A stretch of DNA of 64,000 bases from IMG/VR virus record IMGVR_UViG_3300029121_000001, one strand, 5' to 3'. The notes under the pieces are model-generated. The model did no database searches. It had not been told where the DNA came from and saw nothing but the letters and a program-made list of their open reading frames with translations. Origin of the DNA: a virus. Below are positions 12,882 to 58,810 of this stretch, one piece after another. The translations under genes and the position numbers were made by a program. How positions within the stretch are numbered: position 1 is the stretch's first letter; every line of letters starts with the position of its first letter.

Positions 12882-12910
12882 GTCCCTATGGACTTTTAAT
12901 CCATAGGGAC
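12882..12910 (-). terminator. hairpin after cassette a
   Basis: gtccctatgga/tccatagggac stem just after the cassette stop. Confidence 0.55.
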
Positions 12911-12914
12911 GATT

Positions 12915-13139
12915 TTAAATATATATTATATTAGCATAACTACTATAGTTTCTAAAATCGAACCCACTGCTCCAGTCAAATCCATATGTAGCATATACTT
13001 TACCGTTATATTGATATGCTGTAAAATATTCAGATTGTCCTGGACTATCTAATAAATCACATCCTATCATTGTGCCATTTAATGGATATCCACTAGTAGT
13101 AATATAAATATTATTAAGCTTTTTTATAGAAGCGTCAGA
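12915..13139 (-). CDS. startless cassette a (74 aa), SDAS...IIYI family
   Basis: Opens at TCT GAC GCT TCT directly after an in-frame TAA. No start codon, no RBS. SDASIKKLNNIYITTSGYPLNGTMIGCDLLDSPGQSEYFTAYQYNGKVYATYGFDWSSGFDFRNYSSYANIIYI. Paralogue of cassette j. Confidence 0.6.
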   Translation of the reverse strand, partial: SDASIKKLNNIYITTSGYPLNGTMIGCDLLDSPGQSEYFTAYQYNGKVYATYGFDWSSGFDFRNYSSYANIIYI

Positions 13140-13156
13140 TTATAAAAAAAATAAAA

Positions 13157-13177
13157 GGTGGGCGAATGAAACCCACC
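13157..13177 (-). terminator. intrinsic terminator after 13229..13555, abutting the cassette motif
   Basis: GGTGGG/CCCACC hairpin followed by TTTTATTTTTTTT on the minus strand, then TATAATCTGACGCTTCT. Confidence 0.7.
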
Positions 13178-13228
13178 CCTTCCGTAAAATTCTGATTGAT
13201 ACAGGATCTGTCAATTGTATACTAACGT

Positions 13229-13555
13229 TTATCCGATTATATCCATGATAAACTTAATACATTCTTTGGCCATATCACAGGCAACTCCAACATACTTTCG
13301 ATCCTCCTTATTGACAATGTACACATGTACATTGTCAATTTTGGAGACATCATTATTGAATAAATCAATAATAATTTCTTCCATTTTTGAACTGTTAAAT
13401 TCCATTTTGATCCCATCAGACGATAATATTAAAGCATTACCATCATCGTTTTTACTGATGTATGCAATAAAATCACATATATCAGTACCAAAGTATTTGG
13501 TAAATAGTGCTTTGCATTTATCAGTGCTTAGCTTGAGACGTACATCTATCATCAT
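13229..13555 (-). CDS. hypothetical protein
   Basis: ORF with AAGGAGG RBS before ATGATG at 13555 (MMIDVRLK). The track start at 13588 is upstream of the RBS. Confidence 0.75.
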   Translation of the reverse strand: MMIDVRLKLSTDKCKALFTKYFGTDICDFIAYISKNDDGNALILSSDGIKMEFNSSKMEEIIIDLFNNDVSKIDNVHVYIVNKEDRKYVGVACDMAKECIKFIMDIIG

Positions 13556-13619
13556 AATAATTAACCTCCTTTTATGATGATGAAACAATCCGAAATAGAG
13601 AATTCTTATATTCCTATCT

Positions 13620-13635
13620 CAATTTTATATTATGT
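13620..13635 (-). promoter_or_regulatory. promoter-like motif ACATAATATAAAATTG
   Basis: Degenerate copy of AGATATTATAAWWWTG, 65 nt upstream of the 13555 start. Confidence 0.35.
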
Positions 13636-13661
13636 AAGTGAAAATATACACTTTAAATAAA

Positions 13662-13922
13662 TCTGACGCTTCTATTAAGATAAAGAATAAAATTGTAAAT
13701 GTAAAAGATTATTATACATTTAGAGATGGTATCATATTAAATACCTGCCTTATGACGTATTCTAATGTAAGTTATTCATATAGGCCATTTATTCAAGTGC
13801 GTTACGATAATAATGATAATAGTTATAGTATTAGAATACAATGTATCATTAATAGTGATATTGATGGATATAATTTCGATAATAGTGTGAATGATGGAAG
13901 TATTATAATATATTATATATAA
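13662..13922 (+). CDS. startless cassette b (86 aa), the only motif copy on the plus strand
   Basis: AAATAAATCTGACGCTTCTATTAAG. SDASIKIKNKIVNVKDYYTF...SIIIYYI. The frame is open from 13638 (GTG), but there is no RBS. Confidence 0.55.
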   Translation, partial: SDASIKIKNKIVNVKDYYTFRDGIILNTCLMTYSNVSYSYRPFIQVRYDNNDNSYSIRIQCIINSDIDGYNFDNSVNDGSIIIYYI

Positions 13923-13926
13923 AATA

Positions 13927-13955
13927 ATCCAGTAGGAATTAAATTCCTACTGGAT
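13927..13955. terminator. bidirectional hairpin between convergent cassette b and the radical SAM gene
   Basis: atccagtaggaatt/aattcctactggat. Confidence 0.6.
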
Positions 13956-13962
13956 ATTATTG

Positions 13963-15297
13963 TTACTTATTAAATGCTTCTTTTTCTAGATTAAATAAAT
14001 AATCAGCTTCTTCTTTACCAAGAATATCTACTACTTCATTATATGGAAGATTGATCTTTGTTGGATCTTTATCTCCTAACTCAATACATCTTCTATTATA
14101 ATAGTAATAGTATCCTAATACTCTACCTTTATGAGCATAACAAATTCCAGTATATCTTTTATTCGCAGTTCCATATAATTCATAATTATATGCAGAACAC
14201 CAACCACAATTCAAAGATACAGGACAATCAATACACTTCTTTGGAGATTGAGAAGTGAATGTTATAGAATCAAGTTCTTTCTTGATATTCTTACTACTCT
14301 CTGATTTAAATAATCCATTAAAGCAATCACCAATAATAATTTTATTAGCTTTCTCTTTTCCAATAGATATAGGAGCATATCTAATACAAGGATAAGCATT
14401 GCCATCTGGGTCAAATGCCATCATATGACCGGTACCACCACAGAAATTCTTATCATCATGCTGTAGATTGACTGCTCCTCCGAGAGTAGAATCAAGTAAA
14501 GCTACAATAGCATTACTTTTATTTTGAATTAAATAATTAGAAAGCTTCTTTAATTCAAAATAAATATTCTTTGCATCACTAATAGAATATTCTGGTTCAT
14601 ATGCAAAATTGCAATTAACAAGGTTACATCCATTCTCAATCATCATCTTAATAGATGGAGTAATATATTGAACAGAATTGGGAACAAATGTCATTTTACT
14701 ATTCGCTGAACCATAAATATTTTTTACATCAAGAAATGCTTTATATGCTTTTTCAAATGATCCTTCTCCATATCTATCGATTCTATATTTATCATGAAGA
14801 TCTTGAATACCATCAATAGATACAGTAATTGATAAGAATTCTTTATACTTATGCACAAAATGTTGTACATCTTTATCAAACCAATTCTGACCATTTGTAG
14901 CAAAAGCAATTCTAGTAAATTGAGCAATAGGAATATTCCTTAAATAGCATTGATGAAAGAAATAATCACATATTTCTTCTACTAATTTTGCTTCTAGCAT
15001 TGGTTCTCCACCAATAAAATCAAGAATAATACTTTTTGTATTCTTATTGATAAAATCAGTGTCATTATCCTCATACATATCTAGAATTCTATCAATACAT
15101 TTTTTACCAATATAGAGAGACATAGATCCATCAGACTTATGATGTTCATAACAATAAGAGCAACGAAGATTACACTGATTTGTTACCTGAAATGTAATTT
15201 CTCGTGCAGCCTCCATTTTTCGATCTTCTCCATTTGAAAAAATCTCTCGAATATACTCACCATAATTGTCTCTAGATCGACTATTAATACTTACCAT
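13963..15297 (-). CDS. radical SAM enzyme with C-terminal SPASM-like Cys cluster (anaerobic sulfatase maturase / peptide maturase family)
   Basis: CNLRCSYCYEHH (CxxxCxxC), GGEP motif. C-terminal CIDCPVSLNCGWCSAYNY...GICYAHKG. Confidence 0.85.
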   Translation of the reverse strand: MVSINSRSRDNYGEYIREIFSNGEDRKMEAAREITFQVTNQCNLRCSYCYEHHKSDGSMSLYIGKKCIDRILDMYEDNDTDFINKNTKSIILDFIGGEPMLEAKLVEEICDYFFHQCYLRNIPIAQFTRIAFATNGQNWFDKDVQHFVHKYKEFLSITVSIDGIQDLHDKYRIDRYGEGSFEKAYKAFLDVKNIYGSANSKMTFVPNSVQYITPSIKMMIENGCNLVNCNFAYEPEYSISDAKNIYFELKKLSNYLIQNKSNAIVALLDSTLGGAVNLQHDDKNFCGGTGHMMAFDPDGNAYPCIRYAPISIGKEKANKIIIGDCFNGLFKSESSKNIKKELDSITFTSQSPKKCIDCPVSLNCGWCSAYNYELYGTANKRYTGICYAHKGRVLGYYYYYNRRCIELGDKDPTKINLPYNEVVDILGKEEADYLFNLEKEAFNK

Positions 15298-16198: not shown

Positions 16199-16756
16199 TT
16201 ACATTAACCAAAATCCACATCCAGAGCAAGATTCACAAGTATGAGCACATCCAGATCCACACCCTTCGCATCCATCACACCCTCCACTACATCCTCCACT
16301 ACATCCAGAGCAAGTAGTGTTACATCCTCCACTACAATTTGTTTTACAATTTCCAGAACATCCTTTACAACCACCATAGCAACCAGTATTGCACAATCCA
16401 CTACAAGATGCTTTACATCCAGTAGAGGTCGCATCTTTAGCAATTTTAGAAAGATTGCCTACTGATGTAGTAGCATTTGTAAGTACACTAGCAATAACAT
16501 TAGCATTTTTATCAGGAGTTGTATTACTACCAGTAACAGCATCCAAAGGTTTAGTAATCTTTTGAATGTGTTCTAAATTGATTTTAATATCTTTACCTTG
16601 AGCTGGTGTAGTAGTATAATCATATGAAGTTCCATTATAGGATTTCATACTTCCAACACTTGCTGAATTTGATCTACGTGTAATCTCCGATTTTACGAGT
16701 TTCTTAAGTGCAGTAAAATCACTAGCATTAATTAATTCGCTTTTTTTAATACCCAT
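16199..16756 (-). CDS. protein with an extremely Cys/Gly/Ser-rich C-terminal tail
   Basis: 185 aa. The last 72 residues contain 19 Cys at 3-4 residue spacing (CKASCSGLCNTGCYGGCKGCSGNC...CESCSGCGFWLM). Confidence 0.8.
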   Translation of the reverse strand: MGIKKSELINASDFTALKKLVKSEITRRSNSASVGSMKSYNGTSYDYTTTPAQGKDIKINLEHIQKITKPLDAVTGSNTTPDKNANVIASVLTNATTSVGNLSKIAKDATSTGCKASCSGLCNTGCYGGCKGCSGNCKTNCSGGCNTTCSGCSGGCSGGCDGCEGCGSGCAHTCESCSGCGFWLM

Positions 16757-16760
16757 AATA

Positions 16761-17303
16761 TTACCCTCTTACACGAATGCGTACTCGACGAATATCTGTA
16801 TTAAGATCTTCATCGACTGCATATCCTACAATTTGTGTATTTTCTACTATTTCATCATGAAGTTTTGCTTTACCAACTCCAGAAATATCAGAAACTATAA
16901 TAGTATCTCCACGATGAATTTCTCCAATACACTTACAGTATACACGGCCACATAGTGATACAGGAATATATTTCTTAATATTCTTAGAAATATAATCATC
17001 ACTATTATCATATTGATCACCACCAATAATCATAGCATATTCATCAGAATGAACACCTGCAATAATACTACTTTTATTAGTAGCTTTAATATAGCTTTCT
17101 TTATCAGAAGATAGATCAAGAGCAATAATATCTCCAGGTTCTGTATATTCTCCTCTAGGGAAGAATTCTGCATAGTCATTATATACAGCACCATAACATT
17201 TACTAAATTTTGCTACACCATTTTTATCTACATAATAACTAGCACTACCAAAATTAATAGTACCCGTCATTGTTCCACCAGACTTAAGAAGATAAGCGTC
17301 AAA
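16761..17303 (-). CDS. startless cassette c: tail-fibre-like C-terminal module with Peptidase_G2/IMC-like domain
   Basis: Opens TAA TAA TTT GAC GCT TAT, giving FDAYLLKSGGTMTGTINF (classic fibre motif). DYAEFF...IAGVHS...PVSLCGRVYCKC resembles the phi29 gp12-type autochaperone. An internal ATG at 17270 has no RBS. Confidence 0.6.
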   Translation of the reverse strand, partial: FDAYLLKSGGTMTGTINFGSASYYVDKNGVAKFSKCYGAVYNDYAEFFPRGEYTEPGDIIALDLSSDKESYIKATNKSSIIAGVHSDEYAMIIGGDQYDNSDDYISKNIKKYIPVSLCGRVYCKCIGEIHRGDTIIVSDISGVGKAKLHDEIVENTQIVGYAVDEDLNTDIRRVRIRVRG

Positions 17304-17371: not shown

Positions 17372-17587
17372 TTAAATATAATACACTATACAAGATATAT
17401 TATCATCCGTCCAAGTTGATGTATTACTACCTAAAGTAAAATGAATACAATATATCCAAGATGATTTAGATATAAATGCAATATAATTATAATAGTTTTC
17501 TTTAATTGCAACAGATATTGGAATTCCTAATGTAAACTTTTGTCCTGATTTAAAATCTATACTCTTAATTTTAGTAGAAGCGTCAGA
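17372..17587 (-). CDS. startless cassette d (71 aa)
   Basis: TGA TCT GAC GCT TCT. SDASTKIKSIDFKSGQKFTLGIPISVAIKENYYNYIAFISKSSWIYCIHFTLGSNTSTWTDDNISCIVYYI. No in-frame start near the 5' end, no RBS. Confidence 0.6.
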   Translation of the reverse strand, partial: SDASTKIKSIDFKSGQKFTLGIPISVAIKENYYNYIAFISKSSWIYCIHFTLGSNTSTWTDDNISCIVYYI

Positions 17588-18463: not shown

Positions 18464-18541
18464 AATTCAAAATCATTATATATATAACGATATTTCACAT
18501 CATAATAATTCTCAAAACTTTTCATAAAGGAGACAATTATT

Positions 18542-19045
18542 ATGAATTTTAATATGAAACAACTTCATACTATCTATGAATGTGATACCAATGATCAGAC
18601 TGGAGCAAATCTAGATAATACTCTTTCTTCTAATAATCTTCTAGATATCTTTGATAATATTTGTCCTATTACTGGTGATATCTATAAGACCATGAAGAAT
18701 GCTGCTGCAGATCCTAAGAATCTAAAGGTTACTGCTGCTAAGTCTGGAGATGGAGAGAAAGCAAGTCTTTTCATTGAAGCTGTAGAGTTTATGACTTATG
18801 TAGAAGCTTCTGGTAAGACTATTGGTGAAGCAGCAGAAGATATTGTAGATACTTATCAATCTGATATCCCTGGTATGGCAAGTGATGATATCCATGTTGT
18901 ATTTCCCAGTGATGCTCTTAATAAAAATAATCTCGGCAGTCAGAATTATGGCAGAGATGTTAAGAACGATTGGGCAATGCAACTTATGACTGGAATTCGT
19001 AGATATGGCCTAAAGGCAAATATTGGAGTTGACGAAAGTAAATAA
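18542..19045 (+). CDS. hypothetical protein
   Basis: 167-aa ORF, AAGGAG RBS. Confidence 0.8.
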   Translation: MNFNMKQLHTIYECDTNDQTGANLDNTLSSNNLLDIFDNICPITGDIYKTMKNAAADPKNLKVTAAKSGDGEKASLFIEAVEFMTYVEASGKTIGEAAEDIVDTYQSDIPGMASDDIHVVFPSDALNKNNLGSQNYGRDVKNDWAMQLMTGIRRYGLKANIGVDESK

Positions 19046-19131: not shown

Positions 19132-19371
19132 TTATATATAATAAATTATTGCTGTACCTGATACACAGTTATCAACATCATGTGAATTATATCCAGTATT
19201 TGCACATATATAATATAAATTTTCAGTATAATATTTATTATTCATTGTTATACTACACACAGGATAATTAGTACCATTATATATTAATACAGCAGATATT
19301 GGCGTTCCTGGTACAGAAAAATAACTTGACACTTTTACTGTTATATTTTTAATCTTAGTAGAAGCGTCAGA
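19132..19371 (-). CDS. startless cassette e (79 aa)
   Basis: TGA TAA TCT GAC GCT TCT. SDASTKIKNITVKVSSYFSVPGTPISAVLIYNG...GTAIIYYI. The track GTG start at 19332 has no RBS and lies inside the conserved region. Confidence 0.6.
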   Translation of the reverse strand, partial: SDASTKIKNITVKVSSYFSVPGTPISAVLIYNGTNYPVCSITMNNKYYTENLYYICANTGYNSHDVDNCVSGTAIIYYI

Positions 19372-49762: not shown

Positions 49763-49839
49763 TGGTGGGCCATGTAGGACTCGAACCTACGACCATCCGG
49801 TTATGAGCCAGAAGCTCTGACCAACTAAGCTAATAGCCC
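49763..49839 (-). tRNA. tRNA-Met: tRNA with CAU anticodon (Met, or Ile2 if lysidine-modified), encoded CCA
   Basis: GGGCTATTAGCTTAGTTGGTCAGAGCTTCTGGCTCATAACCGGATGGTCGTAGGTTCGAGTCCTACATGGCCCACCA folds as a cloverleaf with GGTTCGAGTCC T-arm. Confidence 0.9.
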
Positions 49840-49871
49840 TTATAAGTAGAATTAGGGGAGATAATTCTACA

Positions 49872-49954
49872 TGGTGCAGGAAAAGGGACTTGAACCCTCA
49901 CTCCGAAGAACTAGATCCTAAGTCTAGCGTGTCTGCCATTCCACCATTCCTGCA
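49872..49954 (-). tRNA. tRNA-Leu: tRNA-Leu (UAG anticodon), class II with long variable arm, encoded CCA
   Basis: TGCAGGAATGGTGGAATGGCAGACACGCTAGACTTAGGATCTAGTTCTTCGGAGTGAGGGTTCAAGTCCCTTTTCCTGCACCA; anticodon loop CTTAGGA. Confidence 0.88.
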
Positions 49955-50194: not shown

Positions 50195-50458
50195 TTAAAT
50201 ATAATAAAGCGTAGATATAGTGCACTCCATTATAATTATTCCAGAAGCATTATAAGCAAGTGCCATTATATATGAATCTATTTGTGTTAACATACATTTA
50301 TATCTTATTACTTTCATATTTAATGAATATCCAATCATAGTTCCAGAAGCTAAATAATAACAGTATTCATTAAAGTTACCATATTGATTATTTATCTGTG
50401 TATATACTGTTTTTATATCAGATAATTTATGTATAATATTTTTCTGAGAAGCGTCAGA
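50195..50458 (-). CDS. startless cassette f (87 aa)
   Basis: AAATAAATCTGACGCTTCTCAG. SDASQKNIIHKLSDIKTVYTQINNQYGNFNEYCYYLASGTMIGYSLNMKVIRYKCMLTQIDSYIMALAYNASGIIIMECTISTLYYI. Confidence 0.55.
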   Translation of the reverse strand, partial: SDASQKNIIHKLSDIKTVYTQINNQYGNFNEYCYYLASGTMIGYSLNMKVIRYKCMLTQIDSYIMALAYNASGIIIMECTISTLYYI

Positions 50459-50474
50459 TTTATTTGATAATATA

Positions 50475-50711
50475 TTAAATATAGAATATTCTTACATTAT
50501 ATTTTGCTAAAATAATATCATGTGCGTTTAAGTCAATATTAAATGCAGCGATTCCATATTGTGAATTACTAATGTAATATATGGATACATATGGAAGTCC
50601 AGATATAGAATTCACATCTTTACATACTGCAGATATTACAGTTCCATTTTTAAAAGTTTTTAGTTCTGGGATATACATATCTATATATTTAATTTTAGTA
50701 GAAGCGTCAGA
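50475..50711 (-). CDS. startless cassette g (78 aa)
   Basis: TAA AAT AAA TCT GAC GCT TCT. SDASTKIKYIDMYIPELKTFKNGTVISAVCKD...NVRIFYI. The internal ATG at 50678 has no RBS. Confidence 0.6.
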   Translation of the reverse strand, partial: SDASTKIKYIDMYIPELKTFKNGTVISAVCKDVNSISGLPYVSIYYISNSQYGIAAFNIDLNAHDIILAKYNVRIFYI

Positions 50712-50720
50712 TTTATTTTA

Positions 50721-51638
50721 TCTTATCATTATAAGAGGGAAAACTCCTTTACTACCATAATACACAGGTGCATTAGCAACTTTTACTTCAGATCCAGATG
50801 CAATATACCATGGCATATCATAACTGTGTCCTCCTTGAGGATAGCTATTGTTTGATAATCCACGTAAGAAGCCATCTCCAAATTACCAAGTAGTAAAATT
50901 AAAATATGGTAATTTATAATTAGCTTCACCATCATCATATTTGTTGTTATTAGAAGCAAATTTACCAGTAATTTGTCCAGCACTCATTAATGTACAATAT
51001 GCATTTGTCCAAGCATAACCTGTATTAGTAAGATTGCCATTGACATATTCAGTTTTATTAGATAATAATACCTTTCTTTTAACTAAATGATTATAAAAAA
51101 TAGATTTTTTCATCAATATATCAGCTGTAGTTGAATTCAAATCTTTATGCACACCTGTACTTACATATCCAGTATCTTCAAATATCATGCCATTTGATGA
51201 TTTATAAAGAGGTTCTGTAGGAATCATAAATATACCATATCCATTATCATATGGTGTTCCATCTGAAGCAGTTTTATTATGTTCACAATCAAAACCTACA
51301 ATAACCCATTTCTTATTGTAAGTACCATCTTTAATAGTTATTGTAGAACCAATAGAAGCACCATAATAACCTGTAAAATTACTACATCTAATAAGAAAAT
51401 CATCTAGATCAATAGTAGTTTCATCATGATTAATGGATAATGTGCCAAGGTCTTGAACTTTATATCTAGTATTAGGAGTAGAAGTATCAATAGGAAGATT
51501 TTTTACATCTCCTAGTATTTTAATAATAATAGATTGTATAGTTGTATTTTTACTAAATTTACTTTTAGCAGGAATTCCTCCAACTGTGTATCTTGTTACA
51601 ATATCATTCTCTAATATTAAATTAGTAGAAGCGTCAGA
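50721..51638 (-). CDS. startless cassette h: long receptor-binding-like module (251 + 54 codons) interrupted by an in-frame TAA; paralogue of cassette i
   Basis: TAA TAA TCT GAC GCT TCT. SDASTNLILENDIVTRYTVGGIPAKSKF...ANYKLPYFNFTTW-TAA-FGDGFLRGLSNN...GVFPLIMIR. The first in-frame ATG is 136 codons in. Confidence 0.6.
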
Positions 51639-52587: not shown

Positions 52588-53129
52588 CCTAAATCGGACA
52601 CTTTAGGAAAGTTAAAATTGAAATAAGCGAATCTTATGTCATTCATGTACCCTTACACATGAAATATTTAAAATTGCTTAAAACTGCATATTTTAACTTT
52701 TCTTTTAATTTAGCGATCATATCTTTATCCAGTAAAGATTCTGCAATTCTTTATTTATCTGGATATATATCGTTTCGATTTAAATGGATTTATCTGCTGC
52801 CTCAGTACCATACCTATATAATATAGGCTCTACATAATGATCTGTGGGCACACTCATTTCTGAGCTTCGCTGCTGGTTGTCAATTTTATACTATAATAGT
52901 ATTGATCTTTAAGGAACTTAATTTTCATTAAGCTTTTATTGCATCCTAGATCATCCTGTAAATTCTTTCTGACTTTCGTCGGCTTTCACGCTTACCATTG
53001 CTAGTTACGTTGTAGCTTTACAGGCATTATGGTTTTCCAGCAATTAGATATATTAGCGACTCTAAATTACTTTAGAGAAGGGACTTCTGTGGTGATATTA
53101 TATATTATAAATAGCACCACTGCTATTTA
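52588..53129 (-). ncRNA. group I self-splicing intron (542 nt, no ORF)
   Basis: Splits AAD/FDGD. 5' exon ends in U (GAT); the intron ends in G (…GATTTAGG). CCCACAGATCATTATG and AAAGATATGATCGC resemble the conserved R and S elements and can pair as P7 (GATCAT/ATGATC). GC-elevated, no ORF. Confidence 0.75.
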
Positions 53130-54554
53130 ATCCGCAGCCAAAAATTTCAAGATCTGCAGAGGAACTGCTAGAGTATAGGTATTAGTAATTCCAACACAGA
53201 ACATTTGCAGAATAGAGCCATAAGCAAGTGTAGGATTTCGGCCAATTATTACCGGTAATCCACGCATACCTTTATGCTTAAAATCATCAATGATAGATTG
53301 AATAATCGTATTGATCTTTTTATTAGGCTCAATAGTAGCTTTATACCAGATATCATGAGCTTCTGTTGGAGTCATACCATGCATACGGCAAAGAATATTT
53401 TTAATTCTCTGCTCAAGCATAACAGTCAGAGCAACTGCAGGCATTGTAATTTCATCAATACGAAGATTGGGATTTTGAACGATAACACAACGAGAAGAGA
53501 AGTTATACCGTCCACCGAGAAGACATCTAAAATCACCTTTCTTACCAGCAAGGATATTAATTTGCTCTGAATAAATATCCATAAACTTCTTCTGGAGATT
53601 ATAAAGCTGCTGATTCTTGATCTTAGGTTCTCTCTGAATAGCAGTCTTATTCTTGTTGATAGAAGTTGCTAGTTTATTGATCATGGCATACATTGCATTT
53701 GTAGGCTCATATGTCATGTTATTTCCATCGATATCAAAAGGACGAAGTAGAGTAGTAATAACAGGAAGAGACGATGAGAATACAGACTCTCTAGCTTCAT
53801 AAATAGCATCATAATAACTCTTCTTATTAGGATACTTTTTAATATAATAATCCATAATCTCATCGAATCTTTCAGTGAATTCTATCATACCAATTCCAAA
53901 GAAAGGTTCATCCTTAAGCTTAGGATCATCTCTAGACATCGTATTGAGAACAAGTTGAGTATCTGTGACATCAAGAATATTCTCAAGCTTAGTACGCTTA
54001 TTACCTTGAATATAGATGCCCTTACCAAGAATAGATTCAATATAGATATAGAATGTAGGATGAATAAACTTATATGGTTTAGATAATTTAATCCAACCAC
54101 AATACTTGAAGTTATCATCTACATATGTGCACAAGTGCCCACATTGAGGACAGCGAAGACCATAATTAATACGTCCTCTAAGTCCTCCTTCTTTACATCT
54201 ACAACGATACCTATCCATAAAAGGATTAGTATCAGCAAGAGTCTGTCCAAACTTTGGAGAGAAGATACCATCTTCTGCACGAAGATCTTTCTTGATGTTA
54301 CGTCCTGCAGGTTCTACAATAAAGCCATTGCCTTCACGAAGATCATCTTCACAAGCTTTATCATAATTAATGATCTCAAGCTTACCAGAGAATTCATATT
54401 TATCAGAATGAGGATAAGTTTTACTGGTAGACATAAGATCATTAAGATGAGGCTTAAGGAAATTAAATTCCTGTTGATGCTTCATCTGATATTCGATATT
54501 GTAATCGTGGAGTTGTTTATAGTTGCTAGTGTCAACATTATATTTCGTTTCCAT
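53130..54554 (-). CDS. RNA polymerase beta-prime-like subunit, exon 1
   Basis: Zn-binding CRCKEGGLRGRINYGLRCPQCG; LLGGRYNFSSRCVIV; ends ...LKFLAAD. AAGGAGG RBS. Confidence 0.85.
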
Positions 54555-54677: not shown

Positions 54678-55241
54678 TTAAGAATTATCTGTAAATTTAT
54701 TCAGTTTCATTATAGTATTATAATCAGGATCATCTAATCTAGGCTGTTTAGAATCGTCTTTTAGCAGGTATACTTTTCCTTTAAACGGTTTATATTTAAT
54801 ACCAACAGCATCAAGCATTCTAGTAGCTTCTCTAAAATCTGCTGTATCAGGATATTTATTAATGCTATAATAAATATTCTTTACTCCTACTTGAATAAGA
54901 GCCTTAGTGCAATTATGACAAGGAAACATGGTTACATAAAGAGTAGATCCTCTAAAAGCAGAAAGATCTCCACGGAAGTTGAGAATAGCATTTTCTTCTG
55001 CATGTACTACATAAGGATATTTAGTATCTTCTTCATTTTCTGCTTCCCTTGCCCAAGGAAATTCATCATCAGAAATTCCATTAGGAAATCCATTATAACC
55101 AATGCTAAGGATACGATCATTAGAAGATACAAATACTGCACCAACTTGAGAATTAGGATCTTTAGATCGCATTGCTGCCATTCGAGCAATGCCCATATAC
55201 ATATCTTCTTTAGAGATATAATTAGTGCGTTTATCTGACAT
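54678..55241 (-). CDS. dCMP deaminase
   Basis: VVHAEENAI and PCHNCTKALIQVGVKNIYY zinc-binding motifs; AAGGAGG RBS. Confidence 0.9.
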   Translation of the reverse strand: MSDKRTNYISKEDMYMGIARMAAMRSKDPNSQVGAVFVSSNDRILSIGYNGFPNGISDDEFPWAREAENEEDTKYPYVVHAEENAILNFRGDLSAFRGSTLYVTMFPCHNCTKALIQVGVKNIYYSINKYPDTADFREATRMLDAVGIKYKPFKGKVYLLKDDSKQPRLDDPDYNTIMKLNKFTDNS

Positions 55242-55360: not shown

Positions 55361-56227
55361 TTACCTAATATAAATAAGCGGACGAAGACCGAGCCTGCTA
55401 TAACAGAGGTTCCAATCTGGTTTACCAGAATTTGAAATACCATAGACATAGTTATTGCCATAACTTTTACTGCATATTCCACGCAACCAAGCCCAATTAT
55501 CAAAACTCCATGTTTCATAATTGAATAATGGTAGTTTATAATTAGCTTCTCCATCATCGAATTTATTACTAGTAGAAGCAAATGTGCCAGTTACTTGTCC
55601 TGTACTCATTAACGTGCAATATGCATTAGTCCATATATAACTATTAGCACAATAATTAGAATCTCTAGAAGTACTCAATAGAACATTACGTAGTACAAGA
55701 TGCTCACCAAGTACTCTCTTAAGGTTATCTGCAACTTCAGATAATATAGTCTTATTTATAGCAGATCCATTATATCCTTTTTCAGTAGAACTAGAATCCC
55801 ATACTACACTACCTAAACTCCTCCTAGGTATTAAACATATACCATATCCATTATCATTAGTATTTCCATCAGATGCTGTTTGATTGTGTTCCATATCGAA
55901 ACCAGCAATAATCCATTCTTTATTATATACATCATCTTTAATAGTAACATAACTACCAATAGTAGCACCGTAATAACCAGTATCATGGCAACATCTATAA
56001 AGAAAGTAATCTATATCACTAACATTAGACCAAGTCCCAAGATCCTGAGACTTATAACGTGTATTAGGTGTAGAAGTATCAACCGGAAGTTGTCCACTAT
56101 CTCCTAGCATTTTAATGATAATAGATTGTATAGTATCAGTTGCAGAGAATTGAGATCTTTTAGATATACCTCCAACAGTATATCTAGTATTATAAATTTG
56201 GACTCCAAGTTTATTAGAAGCGTCATT
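55361..56227 (-). CDS. startless cassette i: long receptor-binding-like module (288 aa), variant motif AATGACGCTTCT
   Basis: NDASNKLGVQIYNTRYTVGGISKRSQF...ANYKLPLFNYETWSFDNWAWLRGI...GLRPLIYIR. The track N-terminal extension to 56350 overlaps cassette j in another frame and has no RBS. Confidence 0.6.
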   Translation of the reverse strand, partial: NDASNKLGVQIYNTRYTVGGISKRSQFSATDTIQSIIIKMLGDSGQLPVDTSTPNTRYKSQDLGTWSNVSDIDYFLYRCCHDTGYYGATIGSYVTIKDDVYNKEWIIAGFDMEHNQTASDGNTNDNGYGICLIPRRSLGSVVWDSSSTEKGYNGSAINKTILSEVADNLKRVLGEHLVLRNVLLSTSRDSNYCANSYIWTNAYCTLMSTGQVTGTFASTSNKFDDGEANYKLPLFNYETWSFDNWAWLRGICSKSYGNNYVYGISNSGKPDWNLCYSRLGLRPLIYIR

Positions 56228-56231
56228 CTTA

Positions 56232-56456
56232 TTAAATATATATGATGTTTGCATGGCAGTCATCAGTATAAGATGACGCTGTACCATTACTCCAGTGTCT
56301 AATCCATCTATAATATAATTTTCCGTTATTTTGATAAATCCAATCAGCATCGTTTCTTACGTCATCTAATATATCAAATCCTATTATAGTACCATTTAAT
56401 GTATATCCAGATTTTGTGATATAAATATTATAAAGCTTCTTTATAGAAGCGTCAGA
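56232..56456 (-). CDS. startless cassette j (74 aa)
   Basis: TAA TAA TCT GAC GCT TCT. SDASIKKLYNIYITKSGYTLNGTIIGFDILDDVRNDADWIYQNNGKLYYRWIRHWSNGTASSYTDDCHANIIYI. Confidence 0.6.
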   Translation of the reverse strand, partial: SDASIKKLYNIYITKSGYTLNGTIIGFDILDDVRNDADWIYQNNGKLYYRWIRHWSNGTASSYTDDCHANIIYI

Positions 56457-56505: not shown

Positions 56506-57711
56506 TTATTTCTTATATTCCATTTCGTAGAAACTCAAATCATACGGATATGGAACTTTTGGTTTACAGTTTCTATCACAGTATCCACAAGATTTGGATT
56601 GTCCACTTAACACTGAAGACAATATAGGAATATTAAAATTGCCACAATCGCACTTGCAAATTACTCGTTGATACAAACTTGGTTTATTAATGCTTATATC
56701 TTCTGGGTTATAAATATATGCTGCTTTGATTATAGTAAGTTTTCCATGATGTTCACCTTTATAAATTTTATCAACAGCAGATGGAGTTGATTTCTGATAC
56801 TTCTTACCACACTTGTCGCAAGTAGTTCTCTGCAGTTTACCATTCTCTAATTTTGTAGATACATATCCTCCACAATCACATTGACATACCACATTAAAAT
56901 GAGAAATCGTGCGATCATATCCACTAATTACAGGTACTGCTTGTACGATTCTAAGTTTTCCATACTTCCTTCCAATCAATTTAGGTGTATATTCTTTTGC
57001 ATAGCAGTATACGCATTCACCATATTTTTTATTCCAGGCAAACAGTACATCTTTGCAATCAGTATATGCATTACCACATTTAATACATTTAAATGTACAC
57101 TTATCGAGATCTTTTGTAACACTAATAAGTTTAAGTCTTGAAATACGTCGTTCAAGATCCATTCTGCATTGAATTTCCATCAATTCATCGCACTTAGTGC
57201 AATTGGGATATACAGATAGTGCATTATTTAGTGTAATACGATTGACTTCACCACAAGAATGAACTGTATAGACATATGTGGTATTCATCAATTTAATGAT
57301 GTTGTCACTGGTAAATTCACATTCTACTTTATCATATCTCCTATCATCTCTAGAAAGATTTCCAATAATCTGACACCATCCAAATGCCTGATGGTCTTGA
57401 GCCCAGATATATCCTACGTATTCATTAGGATCAAAGATGTTGTCACACTCCTCTTTAACGATGAATGTATTGGACTTGCTAGCTTCAAGTATAGCATTGA
57501 ATGCATCTTTTGAATTATCAATACCATATACATTAGAATCATATGCGCTAATATAGAGATTGATATATTTATCACTTGTAATAAAGTAATGCCCTTTTGC
57601 TTTTATGGAAAATATCATTTCTCTATTTAAGCCAATTCCAATGAATAGTGTATTAGGAAAATACTTATAGATACTTTCCATATACTCGATAACCTTTTTC
57701 TTGTCAATCAT
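56506..57711 (-). CDS. Cys-rich protein with C-x-C-D-C-G repeat modules (paralogue of 33126..33884)
   Basis: KYGKLRIVQAV..VVCQCDCG and HHGKLTIIKAA..ICKCDCG. The ATG at 57711 (MIDKKK) follows AAAGGAG; the track start at 57762 lies inside the promoter-like motif. Confidence 0.8.
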   Translation of the reverse strand: MIDKKKVIEYMESIYKYFPNTLFIGIGLNREMIFSIKAKGHYFITSDKYINLYISAYDSNVYGIDNSKDAFNAILEASKSNTFIVKEECDNIFDPNEYVGYIWAQDHQAFGWCQIIGNLSRDDRRYDKVECEFTSDNIIKLMNTTYVYTVHSCGEVNRITLNNALSVYPNCTKCDELMEIQCRMDLERRISRLKLISVTKDLDKCTFKCIKCGNAYTDCKDVLFAWNKKYGECVYCYAKEYTPKLIGRKYGKLRIVQAVPVISGYDRTISHFNVVCQCDCGGYVSTKLENGKLQRTTCDKCGKKYQKSTPSAVDKIYKGEHHGKLTIIKAAYIYNPEDISINKPSLYQRVICKCDCGNFNIPILSSVLSGQSKSCGYCDRNCKPKVPYPYDLSFYEMEYKK

Positions 57712-57759
57712 TTTAACTACTCCTTTTTTAAATTGTATGATAGGACAACTTCTTCCTAC

Positions 57760-57775
57760 CATATTTATAATATAT
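57760..57775 (-). promoter_or_regulatory. promoter-like motif ATATATTATAAATATG
   Basis: 49 nt upstream of the 57711 start. Confidence 0.4.
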
Positions 57776-57787
57776 ATTCATTTCATA

Positions 57788-58762
57788 TTAAAAGTAAATA
57801 TCTCTATTAAAAGCCTCTTTAAAACTCGCTTTAACTTTACTGCTATTCACATTACAATAAATCATAGTAGTCTCTAATTTGGCATGCCCGAGAACTTCTT
57901 TAATCTGTTCTACAGGCATTCCTCTATCCATTAGATGAGTTGCACAAGTTCTACGGAATCGGTGAGGATGTACATTCTCTACTCCAGCTCTATCACCAAT
58001 ATCCTTAAGAATTAATTCTGCACCTCTTGGAGTCAATCTATGGCCATTTGAAAGATGTGTGAATAAAGGTTGATCCGGTTGAGCATAACGTTCTTCTAAA
58101 TATTCTTGTAAGTATTTCATACAATTATTACTTAGATAAACAACTCTCTCCTTATGACCTTTACCAAATACTATAACTTCGCCTTCATTGAAGTTGATAT
58201 CTTTTACATTAAGACTAATAACTTCAGCAAGTCTAGTTCCAGTAGAATATAGAAATTCAACAAATGCTTTATCTCTTTTATTAGTACATTCTGCTCTAAG
58301 AGCATCCATCTCAACATTAGAGAAAGCTTTCTTGATTTTCTTTTCACACAATACTCTTTCAATTTTATTAGTAGGATTTTTCTCAATGAATTCTTCATTT
58401 ACAAGAAATTCATAAAAAGAGCTAATAGCTCTAATCTTAGTCTGTAATGTAGCAGCTTGAAGATTTCTTGCTTTAACCATATAGGCAAGATAATCCTTCA
58501 TATCTGCAGTAGTAATGTCTAAATAACTCTTTCCATTATAGTACTTAGCCATTGCTCTAACTTCTGTTACATATCCGGTCAAAGAAGATGGTTTTAGTCC
58601 TACTAAACTTTTCTGTTGTATGAAGCGTTCTATCAACTCTTCATTTGGTAGAGCGGTTCTAGATGTTCTTAGAATTGTATCCAGAACGTTTTTCAATTTA
58701 GCTAGTTGAATTTCATTTAATTCTGGTCCCATCAATTTTAGGATCATCTCTATATTAGTCAT
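57788..58762 (-). CDS. tyrosine site-specific recombinase (XerC/XerD / phage integrase family)
   Basis: N-terminal SAM-like domain. Catalytic signature GTRLAE...HPHRFRRTCATHL...LGHAKLETTMIY. The ATG at 58762 (MTNIEM) follows GGAG. Confidence 0.9.
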   Translation of the reverse strand: MTNIEMILKLMGPELNEIQLAKLKNVLDTILRTSRTALPNEELIERFIQQKSLVGLKPSSLTGYVTEVRAMAKYYNGKSYLDITTADMKDYLAYMVKARNLQAATLQTKIRAISSFYEFLVNEEFIEKNPTNKIERVLCEKKIKKAFSNVEMDALRAECTNKRDKAFVEFLYSTGTRLAEVISLNVKDINFNEGEVIVFGKGHKERVVYLSNNCMKYLQEYLEERYAQPDQPLFTHLSNGHRLTPRGAELILKDIGDRAGVENVHPHRFRRTCATHLMDRGMPVEQIKEVLGHAKLETTMIYCNVNSSKVKASFKEAFNRDIYF

Positions 58763-58810
58763 CGCTATATCTCCAATCACAATTAATGTACATTAAGGAG
58801 GACTTTTCAA

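Follow-up and report, generated by a model that had tools for sequence, protein, structure and literature searches.

This study concerns a stretch of 64,000 nucleotides from a virus (IMG/VR record IMGVR_UViG_3300029121_000001), referred to here as the window, and within it two cassettes, a and b, that diverge from a small central gene and are both headed by the same short motif. A sequence-only reading of the window had proposed that the segment between the two motif copies inverts and thereby redirects its own transcription unit from cassette a towards cassette b. From the comparison with related viral contigs (designated below by L numbers), we consider it probable that the motif copies are docking sites, each fronting a silent, startless tip of a tail fibre, and that these tips are activated by a mobile module carrying a promoter and an N-terminal domain, rather than by a local invertible switch.

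The motif, AATCTGACGCTTCTAT, is found at 13126-13141 on the minus strand and at 13660-13675 on the plus strand, with zero mismatches and with 518 nt between the arms; when extended, the inverted repeat comprises 35 nt at 77% identity. With up to three mismatches allowed, the window contains 12 matches to this sequence against 1.15 expected, a number that 0 of 100 shuffles reached. A 7-bp core, TGACGCT, defines ten genuine sites scattered across 43 kb, nine of them on the minus strand (at 13137, 17301, 17585, 19369, 50456, 50709, 51636, 56225, and 56454) and only one on the plus strand (at 13664). The perfect pair and this strand count confirm two points of the sequence-only reading, which had described an inverted pair of motifs and had called the copy at 13662 the only plus-strand one in the window. 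The two attB-like copies of the pair carry their cores at 13137-13131 and 13664-13670. In 40 pooled motif copies the codons GAC GCT are invariant (one exception, TGATGCT, was found later in L136), and such invariance in a genome of 33% G+C argues for constraint at the nucleic-acid level. Inverted motif pairs with a spacer of only about 20 nt occur in L067, L093, and L120, so the inverted arrangement alone is no mark of a switch.

At ten of ten motif copies, a long open reading frame (ORF) without a start codon opens, with a stop directly before its first codon when the copy follows a terminator. Cassette a (12915-13139, minus strand) consists of 74 codons and a stop, begins with SDASIKKLNNIYI and ends with ANIIYI; it has no start, and a TAA stop stands immediately ahead of its motif copy. 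It is closed by a bidirectional, terminator-like hairpin (12882-12910) that precedes an 824-amino-acid (aa) gene and has homologs at the same place in L136 and L161. Cassette b (13662-13922, plus strand) has 86 codons and a stop, begins with SDASIKIKNKIV and ends with SIIIYYI. It likewise has no conserved start; an in-frame GTG at 13638 is not conserved, as L106 shows a stop at this place and L092 lacks a canonical start in frame. Orthologs of cassette b are present in L092, L140, and L144, and the hairpin that closes it (13927-13955) doubles as the terminator of a radical-SAM gene on the opposite strand.

The cassette peptides begin [S/Y/F/N/T]-D-A-[S/T/Y]-x-K and then fall into several unrelated protein families whose common feature is the motif only: proteins of 71-100 aa ending in (V/I)YYI, of 251-307 aa, of 168-198 aa (SDATKNFGN...), and of 180 aa with KSGGTMTG, which we take to be a tail-fibre motif. 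Ahead of the motif, the sequences of the different copies are unrelated. The cassette ORFs are real coding sequence. Those of the window and its relatives all remain open despite the AT-rich DNA, and protein sequence is conserved across the a-type family, whose DNA shows synonymous changes. The AlphaFold2 model of cassette a is all-beta with a mean confidence (pLDDT) of 92.7, and a fold search with it gave no significant match in the PDB. Gene callers skip the cassettes or add unrelated, spurious N-terminal extensions to them, and neither the cassette proteins nor the N-domain proteins described below have a family assignment or a name in public sources.

How such startless ORFs can be expressed is seen in the relatives. 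Homologs of the long cassettes include proteins of 419-439 aa in which a 136-aa N-terminal domain (MAIIDKIKVGSTTYDV...IPTSALIYSMNQTLTSL; hereafter, the N-domain) is followed in frame by NDAS and the cassette. A search with the N-domain returned 79 clusters which, together with the long class, make 89 fusion proteins. Their N-domains are 78-96% identical and are joined at one point (...TSL-NDAS) to about 25 types of C-terminal cassette. Fused counterparts exist for eight of the ten cassettes in the window. Cassette a shares 78% amino-acid identity with the fused protein P0177, and the cassette b type is fused in P0171 (46%); the same search overturned an interim view that a-type cassettes are never fused to a genuine N-domain. 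In L138, an N-domain paralog directly precedes an ORF with the Phage_fiber_rpt domain. In L141, the template repeat of a diversity-generating retroelement (DGR) matches a variable region in the 3' end of an N-domain-fused long cassette, with differences mostly at template adenines. From the fibre-repeat neighbour and the DGR in the long cassette, the N-domain is tail-fibre-like, and the motif is therefore the point at which exchangeable receptor-binding tips are joined in frame to a constant N-terminal part of a fibre. In the GenBank phage collection we found no N-domain and no close relative of the region (one match of 63% over 34% of the query).

Two features of these fibre loci should be mentioned in their own right. 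The DGR stands beside the fibre gene at L138:11230-13779 and L141:9100-11767, with a reverse transcriptase in both and a 272-aa accessory gene; in the window the long cassette at 55361-56227 is kept, but no DGR reverse transcriptase, accessory gene, or template repeat is found. A second N-domain copy of 139-148 aa (L138:7432-9052, L141:6209-7047) stops and overlaps an ORF in another frame, which in L138 contains tail-fibre repeats. This overlap may result from a programmed frameshift in a second fibre gene or from an error of assembly there.

Other routes to the expression of startless ORFs were also considered and dropped. A special initiator tRNA was one of them; an Rfam scan of the window found two tRNAs only, an elongator-type tRNA-Met and tRNA-Leu(TAG). 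Translational bypass, tmRNA-like resumption, trans-splicing or a spliced leader, and a Chi-like site were weighed from the sequence and became unnecessary in view of the in-frame N-domain fusions. For the motif as a sigma-70 or phage-polymerase promoter, -10 matches stood at chance level only. As a separate observation, the two tRNA genes (tRNA-Met with anticodon CAT and an elongator-like acceptor stem, and tRNA-Leu with TAG), at 49763-49953, adjoin the cassette cluster at 50195-51638.

An element some 950 bp long (about 841 bp in a short version) bears the N-domain, and we identified it in 14 loci (L140:9467-10417, and in L138, L139, L141, L143-L145, L148, L149, L154, L155, L158, L161, and L162). 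The element, or module, starts with TGACGCT followed by ATTACGAAGTAGTCTGAGAAATCTGCC and ends with ACTTCGCTAAATGACGCT, after which the cassette resumes directly with TCT. In seven aligned modules the upstream flanks are unrelated, and identity rises to about 90% from the core on, where TGACGCT is followed by ATTACGAAG; the aligned modules end with CTAAATGACGCT. The core bounds the 14 modules at both ends, the sole deviation being the right core of L139, TAACGCT. On the left, modules are found in at least ten contexts, formed either by the terminators of various genes or by the 3' ends of various cassettes. Inside, the module contains an insulating hairpin, regulatory repeats, a Shine-Dalgarno sequence, an ATG, and the 136-aa N-domain ending in ...SMNQTLTSL-N. 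Immediately inside the cores, the two ends of the module match each other as an inverted repeat, TCAGACT(CTA)ACTTCG(C)TAA on one side of the core and TTACGAAGTAGTCTGA on the other, whose score was reached by 9 of 5000 shuffles.

Comparisons of empty and occupied sites revealed precise insertion at three places. In the collinear genomes L140 and L144 (96-98% identical), the module is located at two different sites, each of which is empty in the other genome: in L140 between a 292-aa gene and a cassette X, and in L144 after the terminator of the small central gene. In a second pair of contigs, L137 (empty) and L154 (occupied), the flanks are 99% identical and the two alignments overlap by exactly 7 nt, TGACGCT. 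Cassettes also move as blocks. A block of three is present in L140 and absent from L144, with both of its boundaries at cores, and more generally the relatives differ by the insertion or absence of the module and of cassette blocks between direct cores. Together with the fusions, these sites support the part of the sequence-only reading that saw the repeated motif as a DNA recombination joint and the ORFs behind it as exchangeable cassettes.

Several details of the module deserve a separate note. A hairpin with a T-run lies just inside its left core and insulates it, and the non-coding part (L140:9700-9900; alignment columns 270-460) contains five direct repeats, TGTGAAG(A/C)C..TTAAGA, which could be binding sites for a regulator or for an accessory recombination factor. 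Each of the 14 modules, long and short versions alike, also has one internal inverted core about 160 nt upstream of the N-domain ATG. Only here does an inverted motif pair enclose the expression element. Inversion between the internal core and the right core would part the N-domain from the cassette and add a tail of 9-38 aa, and this could be an on/off switch.

The locus of cassettes a and b can be followed through the relatives. In L144 the module is inserted at the site orthologous to 13139, with the same terminator (GGGGTGGGTTTCATTCGCCCACC and a T-run) immediately before the core, and in L140 the orthologous site is empty. The 259.6-kb contig L161 is 88-95% identical to the window in aligned blocks between 25098 and 4145, with the less similar central unit as the exception. 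It shares the window's layout: beyond inverted cassettes come the central unit, which has 76% identity to 13678-13122, and a terminator, then two cassettes ahead of the module, the cassette a ortholog, another two cassettes, and finally the hairpin and the 824-aa gene. In this genome the cassette a ortholog (88% nucleotide identity to 13137-12914) is fused to the N-domain. The array behind the central terminator thus varies from one cassette in the window and a different single one in L092 to three in L136, and to five with the module in L161. Relatives thus demonstrably use site 13139, which in the window is empty and silent. A like architecture exists at another small gene in L138, where inverted cassettes lie upstream of the promoter and forward cassettes follow the terminator.

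The segment between the motif pair is one whole transcription unit on the minus strand. Its 108-aa gene (13229-13555) has a Shine-Dalgarno sequence, AAGGAGG, at 13571-13565, and is ended by an intrinsic-terminator-like hairpin with a T-run (13153-13181) that is kept in L140, L144, and L092. The promoter-like motif (13619-13643, minus strand) belongs to a family, TCAATTTTATAyTATryAAGTGAAA as written on the plus strand, that occurs throughout the window and the relatives. In its non-redundant copies, a Shine-Dalgarno sequence and ATG lie 26-68 nt away on the opposite strand in 12 of 12 cases and on the same strand in 0 of 12. Because they are always on the opposite strand, the motif at 13619-13643 serves the 108-aa gene, and the idea that it faces cassette b was dropped after these counts. 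The earlier claim that the segment holds a promoter-like motif, a 108-aa gene, and a terminator was therefore correct, and what emerges is an ordinary small transcription unit. The 108-aa protein has no Pfam or NCBIfam match, and an identical protein is present on five contigs. In other relatives the gene is swapped for apparently unrelated ones (L106:2842-3168, 108 aa; L136:1502-1825, 107 aa), with the promoter-like motif and the terminator position retained around them; a link between the swapped gene and the cassettes is conceivable.

The remaining eight cassettes of the window, all startless and all on the minus strand, are distributed over three regions. A tail-fibre-like cassette of 180 aa (16761-17303) begins with FDAYLLKSGGTMTG behind the motif variant TTTGACGCTTAT; this is the one with KSGGTMTG. 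Cassettes of 71 aa (17372-17587) and 79 aa (19132-19371) each lie behind a terminator. In the second region, cassettes of 87 aa (50195-50458) and 78 aa (50475-50711) are accompanied by a long one of 251 aa (50883-51638), which belongs to the family that the DGR targets in relatives. In the third, a long cassette of 288 aa (55361-56227; NDASNKLGV...) is preceded by an a-type cassette of 74 aa behind a terminator (56232-56456), whose fused counterpart is P0140. From exactly the motif on, the 288-aa cassette is homologous to the fibre gene of 419-423 aa that is expressed in L138 and L141; ahead of the motif, a terminator and the a-type cassette stand in the window in place of the N-domain.

Five places at which relatives hold the module are in, or next to, blocks shared with the window, and all five are module-free in the window. 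They are the DGR locus (L138 and L141), a position upstream of a 167-aa gene (L140), the first core of the a-site array (L144), a position farther along this array (L161), and one upstream of a 55-aa gene (L143). The L140 module lies immediately upstream of the 167-aa gene in the block of 17372-17587 and is fused to a cassette of the same cluster. In L143 the fusion lies immediately upstream of the same 55-aa gene, with a cassette different from that at 50195-50458. With no module in the window, all of its cassettes, a and b included, appear from the sequence to be silent here; in a genome of about 259 kb, the module of this phage may be located outside the window.

One observation extends beyond single cassettes. 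The 167-aa gene has opposite orientations relative to its neighbours in the window (18464-19045) and in L140 (10616-11184), and its leader in the window is preceded by an apparent relic of a cassette 3' end (..TCATTATATATATAA). The flipped gene and the relic suggest that larger rearrangements have had breakpoints at cassettes.

A candidate for the enzyme is encoded at 57788-58780 on the minus strand. It is an Xer-type tyrosine recombinase (PF00589, 2e-40) with SAM-like N-terminal domains, and it scores 220.2 against the XerA profile NF040815 (cut-off, 220), 102.6 against TIGR02249 (265), and 65.8 bits against NF011946 (435). Its closest solved structures are the XerC-like 4a8e and XerD 1a0p, ahead of IntI4. 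The gene lies 1.3 kb upstream of the cassettes at 56456 and 56227. Its ortholog in L138 is 92% identical and in the same synteny, a few kb upstream of the fibre genes, the module, and the DGR, and L141 also aligns to the window across the recombinase region. Among the window ORFs scanned, no other recombinase, transposase, or resolvase-type protein (serine invertase) was found, apart from a RusA resolvase.

A mechanism can be proposed on this basis. The motif copies would be attachment-type recombination sites, each with a 7-bp crossover core inside about 12-16 conserved nt. The standard site of a tyrosine recombinase consists of inverted arms around a 7-bp overlap, and an excised module would rebuild such a site on its circle, inverted arms flanking the 7-bp overlap in the order ACTTCGCTAAA-TGACGCT-ATTACGAAGT; the predicted circle junction reads ...ACTTCGCTAAATGACGCTATTACGAAGTAG.... 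The Xer-type recombinase of 57788-58780 would act at the TGACGCT cores and carry out both excision and integration. Cassettes a and b would be silent C-terminal modules of a tail-fibre or receptor-binding protein, devoid of promoter and start codon, and each would be expressed only once the module of about 950 bp joins its core and creates an N-domain-DAS-cassette fusion in frame. Recombination between cores would also shift cassette blocks. Cassettes would pile up in harmless intergenic positions flanking a gene, and the opposite orientation of a and b would then be incidental, reflecting insertion on both sides of an ordinary small gene. What we observe directly are the sites and the module boundaries, the startless ORFs and their fusions, the empty and occupied pairs, and the presence of the recombinase gene; from these we infer the enzyme's role, the circular intermediate, the switching rate, and the function in host range.

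A neighbour of the recombinase gene should also be mentioned. Directly after it, in both the window (56506-57762) and L138, stands a gene for a 418-aa, zinc-ribbon-like protein rich in CxxC pairs, with no family match. It precedes the fibre/cassette locus in these two genomes and the fibre locus in L141, and is a candidate accessory factor.

Several points weigh against this proposal. The evidence for mobility consists of comparisons between different assemblies, so that the rate of movement could be evolutionary rather than programmed. The recombinase appears linked to the cores only by its presence and its synteny. The target sites show no clear dyad symmetry, and the likeness of their arms to those of the module is weak (nnTAynAArn). 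Neither a module nor an N-domain occurs in the window or in the 9.4 kb past its left end, which are covered by a 97.8% identical contig (L160) and add two more startless cassettes. At positions 2-4 of the 12-mer TCTGACGCTTCT, one base off the cassette frame, all 40 copies have a start-like triplet (CTG in 23, ATG in 12, and TTG in 5), which a recombination model does not account for. Finally, a core on both sides together with terminal inverted repeats also fits a target-specific transposon with a 7-bp target duplication.

This last point leads to the alternative that survives best, although we regard it as unlikely: the module would be a non-autonomous, target-specific DNA transposon, with terminal inverted repeats, insertion at TGACGCT, and a 7-bp duplication, moved by a transposase, and the Xer-like enzyme would be unrelated, serving, for example, in dimer resolution. 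The inverted repeats do lie just inside identical 7-bp direct repeats, the core count is one at empty sites and two at occupied sites, and Xer-type enzymes commonly resolve dimers. However, the scan of window ORFs found no transposase, and cassette blocks without terminal inverted repeats also come and go exactly between cores. Moreover, every insertion is at the same core within a conserved 12-16-nt site and in frame in a coding joint, and a 7-bp overlap between inverted arms is the usual site of a tyrosine recombinase.

A view without any dedicated machinery is clearly less probable than the transposon. Here the motif would be a conserved linker for occasional homologous recombination between co-infecting phages, and the cassettes would be decaying remnants. 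Tail-fibre genes commonly exchange modules at conserved linkers, and a reliance on different assemblies, as noted above, is what such a view would accommodate. Yet the junctions are precise to the 7-bp overlap with unrelated sequence on either side, which is too short for efficient homologous recombination. Also against this view are cassette ORFs that all stay open in AT-rich DNA, the protein-level conservation of the a-type family, ten cassettes in 64 kb, module ends with inverted arms, and a conserved internal inverted core in every module.

The inversion switch itself, the starting point of this work, now seems to us a shade more improbable still. It holds that the 518-bp segment flips by site-specific inversion, redirecting the unit of promoter, 108-aa gene, and terminator from a to b and switching the cassette that is expressed. 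A perfect 16-nt inverted repeat 518 bp apart, a motif that is a genuine recombination site, and a tyrosine recombinase encoded in the window speak for it. The two copies are alike at 16 of 16 positions here and at fewer in L092 and L140 (b copy AATGACGC), which could reflect exchange between them. Against it, neither cassette has a start codon, the leader of cassette b offers no conserved one, and the central unit ends in its own terminator before cassette a, so that redirecting it would yield neither cassette protein. In the relatives, both cassette types are expressed through N-domain fusion and not from the central unit, the rearrangements are insertions or absences of the module or blocks between direct cores, and inverted pairs with spacers of about 20 nt occur elsewhere.

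The orientation of the unit also speaks against the switch. Among the assemblies that carry the locus beside the 824-aa gene, the orientation of the central unit with respect to its flanks does not differ between the window, the near-identical L119, and five further ones (L092, L136, L140, L144, and L161); under frequent flipping, the chance of these five agreeing with the window would be about 0.03 if the assemblies are independent. No flipped 518-bp unit was found in any relative. A flipped junction would read, for example, ...CACTTTAAATAAATCTGACGCTTCTATAAAAAAGC..., and the leader sequence diagnostic of a flipped or recombinant junction returned nothing in viral contigs. In other words, the redirection from a to b proposed by the sequence-only reading is not upheld, since the cassettes are startless, the unit is self-terminated, and its orientation is constant. 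Inversion between 13131-13137 and 13664-13670 is geometrically possible and chemically conceivable for a tyrosine recombinase, with no visible effect on expression.

Least probable of all, to the point of being nearly negligible, is that the motif is an expression signal (an out-of-frame CTG/ATG/TTG start with recoding, or a phage-polymerase promoter) for cassettes that are stand-alone small proteins: the start-like triplets and a TAATG stop/start overlap in some tandem cassettes favour it, but the frame of the triplet closes after 4-40 codons with no slippery site (so that frameshifting, quadruplet decoding, and hopping from it were rejected), the sequences ahead of the motif have nothing in common between copies, and in 89 proteins translation from an ATG farther upstream continues across the motif in the frame of the cassette.

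Some other genes of the window should be mentioned. Next to cassette b stands a gene for a radical-SAM/SPASM peptide maturase of the "CXXX-repeat target" family (13963-15297; TIGR04115, 5.8e-87, below its cut-off), and 0.9 kb from it one for a 185-aa protein (16199-16756) with a Cys-rich C-terminus (CSGGCNTTCSGCSGGCSGGCDGCEGCGSGC). This cluster lies amid structural and tail-fibre-like genes, and is entirely absent from the close relative L161. The protein at the right side of the window is not on record. Because the window encodes a dCMP/dCTP-deaminase-like protein (54678-55241), a fragment of a multisubunit RNA polymerase beta-type subunit (phrog_2987; 53127-54554), and, elsewhere, a topoisomerase II and a 3164-aa ORF, we assign it to a jumbo phage from human gut metagenomes with a genome of about 259 kb.

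If the module moves at an appreciable frequency, the preferred reading of mobile module and docking sites would amount to programmed diversification of host range in a virus. The alternatives, with about 25 tip types seen and ten silent tips in a 64-kb window, far exceed the two states of the Mu and P1 segments. Because the cassettes are missed or mis-started by gene callers and have no family assignment, current annotations do not show the receptor-binding repertoire of these abundant jumbo phages of the gut. Sites with a 7-bp core and a small Xer-type enzyme may also be of interest as a compact tool for swapping domains in frame. As a bolder speculation, to which we give somewhat less than an even chance, the system could be called a "reverse integron": an expression head of 0.95 kb, with promoter, Shine-Dalgarno sequence, ATG, and a baseplate-proximal fibre domain of 136 aa, would often be excised by the phage Xer-type recombinase and re-integrated among dozens of silent tips across the genome, so that a single burst would be of mixed host specificity, with the DGR as a second layer in some lineages and on/off inversion at the internal core as a possible third.

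We found no description of such a system in the full-text literature searched, nor in a 2026 review of jumbo phages; its likenesses to known systems are nevertheless instructive. Its logic recalls shufflons and the invertible segments of Mu and P1, and its mechanics recall integrons and Int/Xer integration. It resembles integrons in its arrays of promoterless cassettes, its short conserved core, and its tyrosine recombinase, in the precise gain or loss of cassettes and blocks between cores, and in the need for a position next to a promoter-supplying element for expression. It differs in that the cassettes are startless and encode C-terminal domains, the joint being an in-frame coding junction. 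There are no attC-like hairpin sites (imperfect palindromes of 57-141 bp); the gaps are of 0-11 nt, and only the 7-bp core and short flanks are conserved. The promoter element, with its 136-aa N-terminal exon, is itself mobile (at least ten contexts), in place of a fixed attI and Pc platform, and its targets are dispersed in both orientations over a viral genome of more than 250 kb. The recombinase, moreover, is below the cut-offs for integron integrases and is not of the IntI type.

The shufflon of R64 (Rci/sfx, PilV) likewise joins a constant N-terminal part of an adhesin in frame to alternative C-terminal segments, through a short asymmetric site within the coding sequence and a tyrosine recombinase. 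A shufflon, however, is one compact cluster that undergoes inversion only, whereas the sites here are mostly direct and dispersed, the module inserts and translocates, and no inversion is documented. In phages Mu (G/Gin) and P1 (C/Cin), a phage-encoded rearrangement swaps the receptor-binding C-terminal part of a tail fibre and leaves the N-terminal part constant, as is proposed here. Those systems use a serine invertase and two alternatives on one 3-4-kb segment beside the constant part; here the candidate is a tyrosine recombinase encoded 44 kb away, there are about 25 alternatives, and no serine invertase was found. There is also no constant fibre part at the motif pair, where the a copy is preceded by a terminator and the b copy by a 24-nt leader that is not conserved.

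The sap genes of Campylobacter fetus and the vsa genes of Mycoplasma pulmonis combine one expression element with many silent homologs that share a conserved 5' joint, and their logic is nearest to the promoter segment between opposed cassettes that the sequence-only reading envisaged. They concern bacterial surface antigens and work by inversion, whereas here an unrelated gene with its own terminator separates the opposed cassettes, and the expression element is elsewhere. Integration by lambda Int or Xer enzymes (attP x attB) offers the same picture of an identical core at both junctions and a single one at the empty site, with a 7-bp overlap, inverted arms around the core in the reconstituted circle, and, here too, an Xer-like recombinase. 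In our case the element is not a replicon or prophage but a 0.95-kb module of promoter and exon that moves within one viral genome with dozens of targets. Against this background, we rate the system as a programmed or semi-programmed DNA rearrangement of a receptor-binding protein, unusual in that the promoter and the N-terminal exon are themselves the mobile element.

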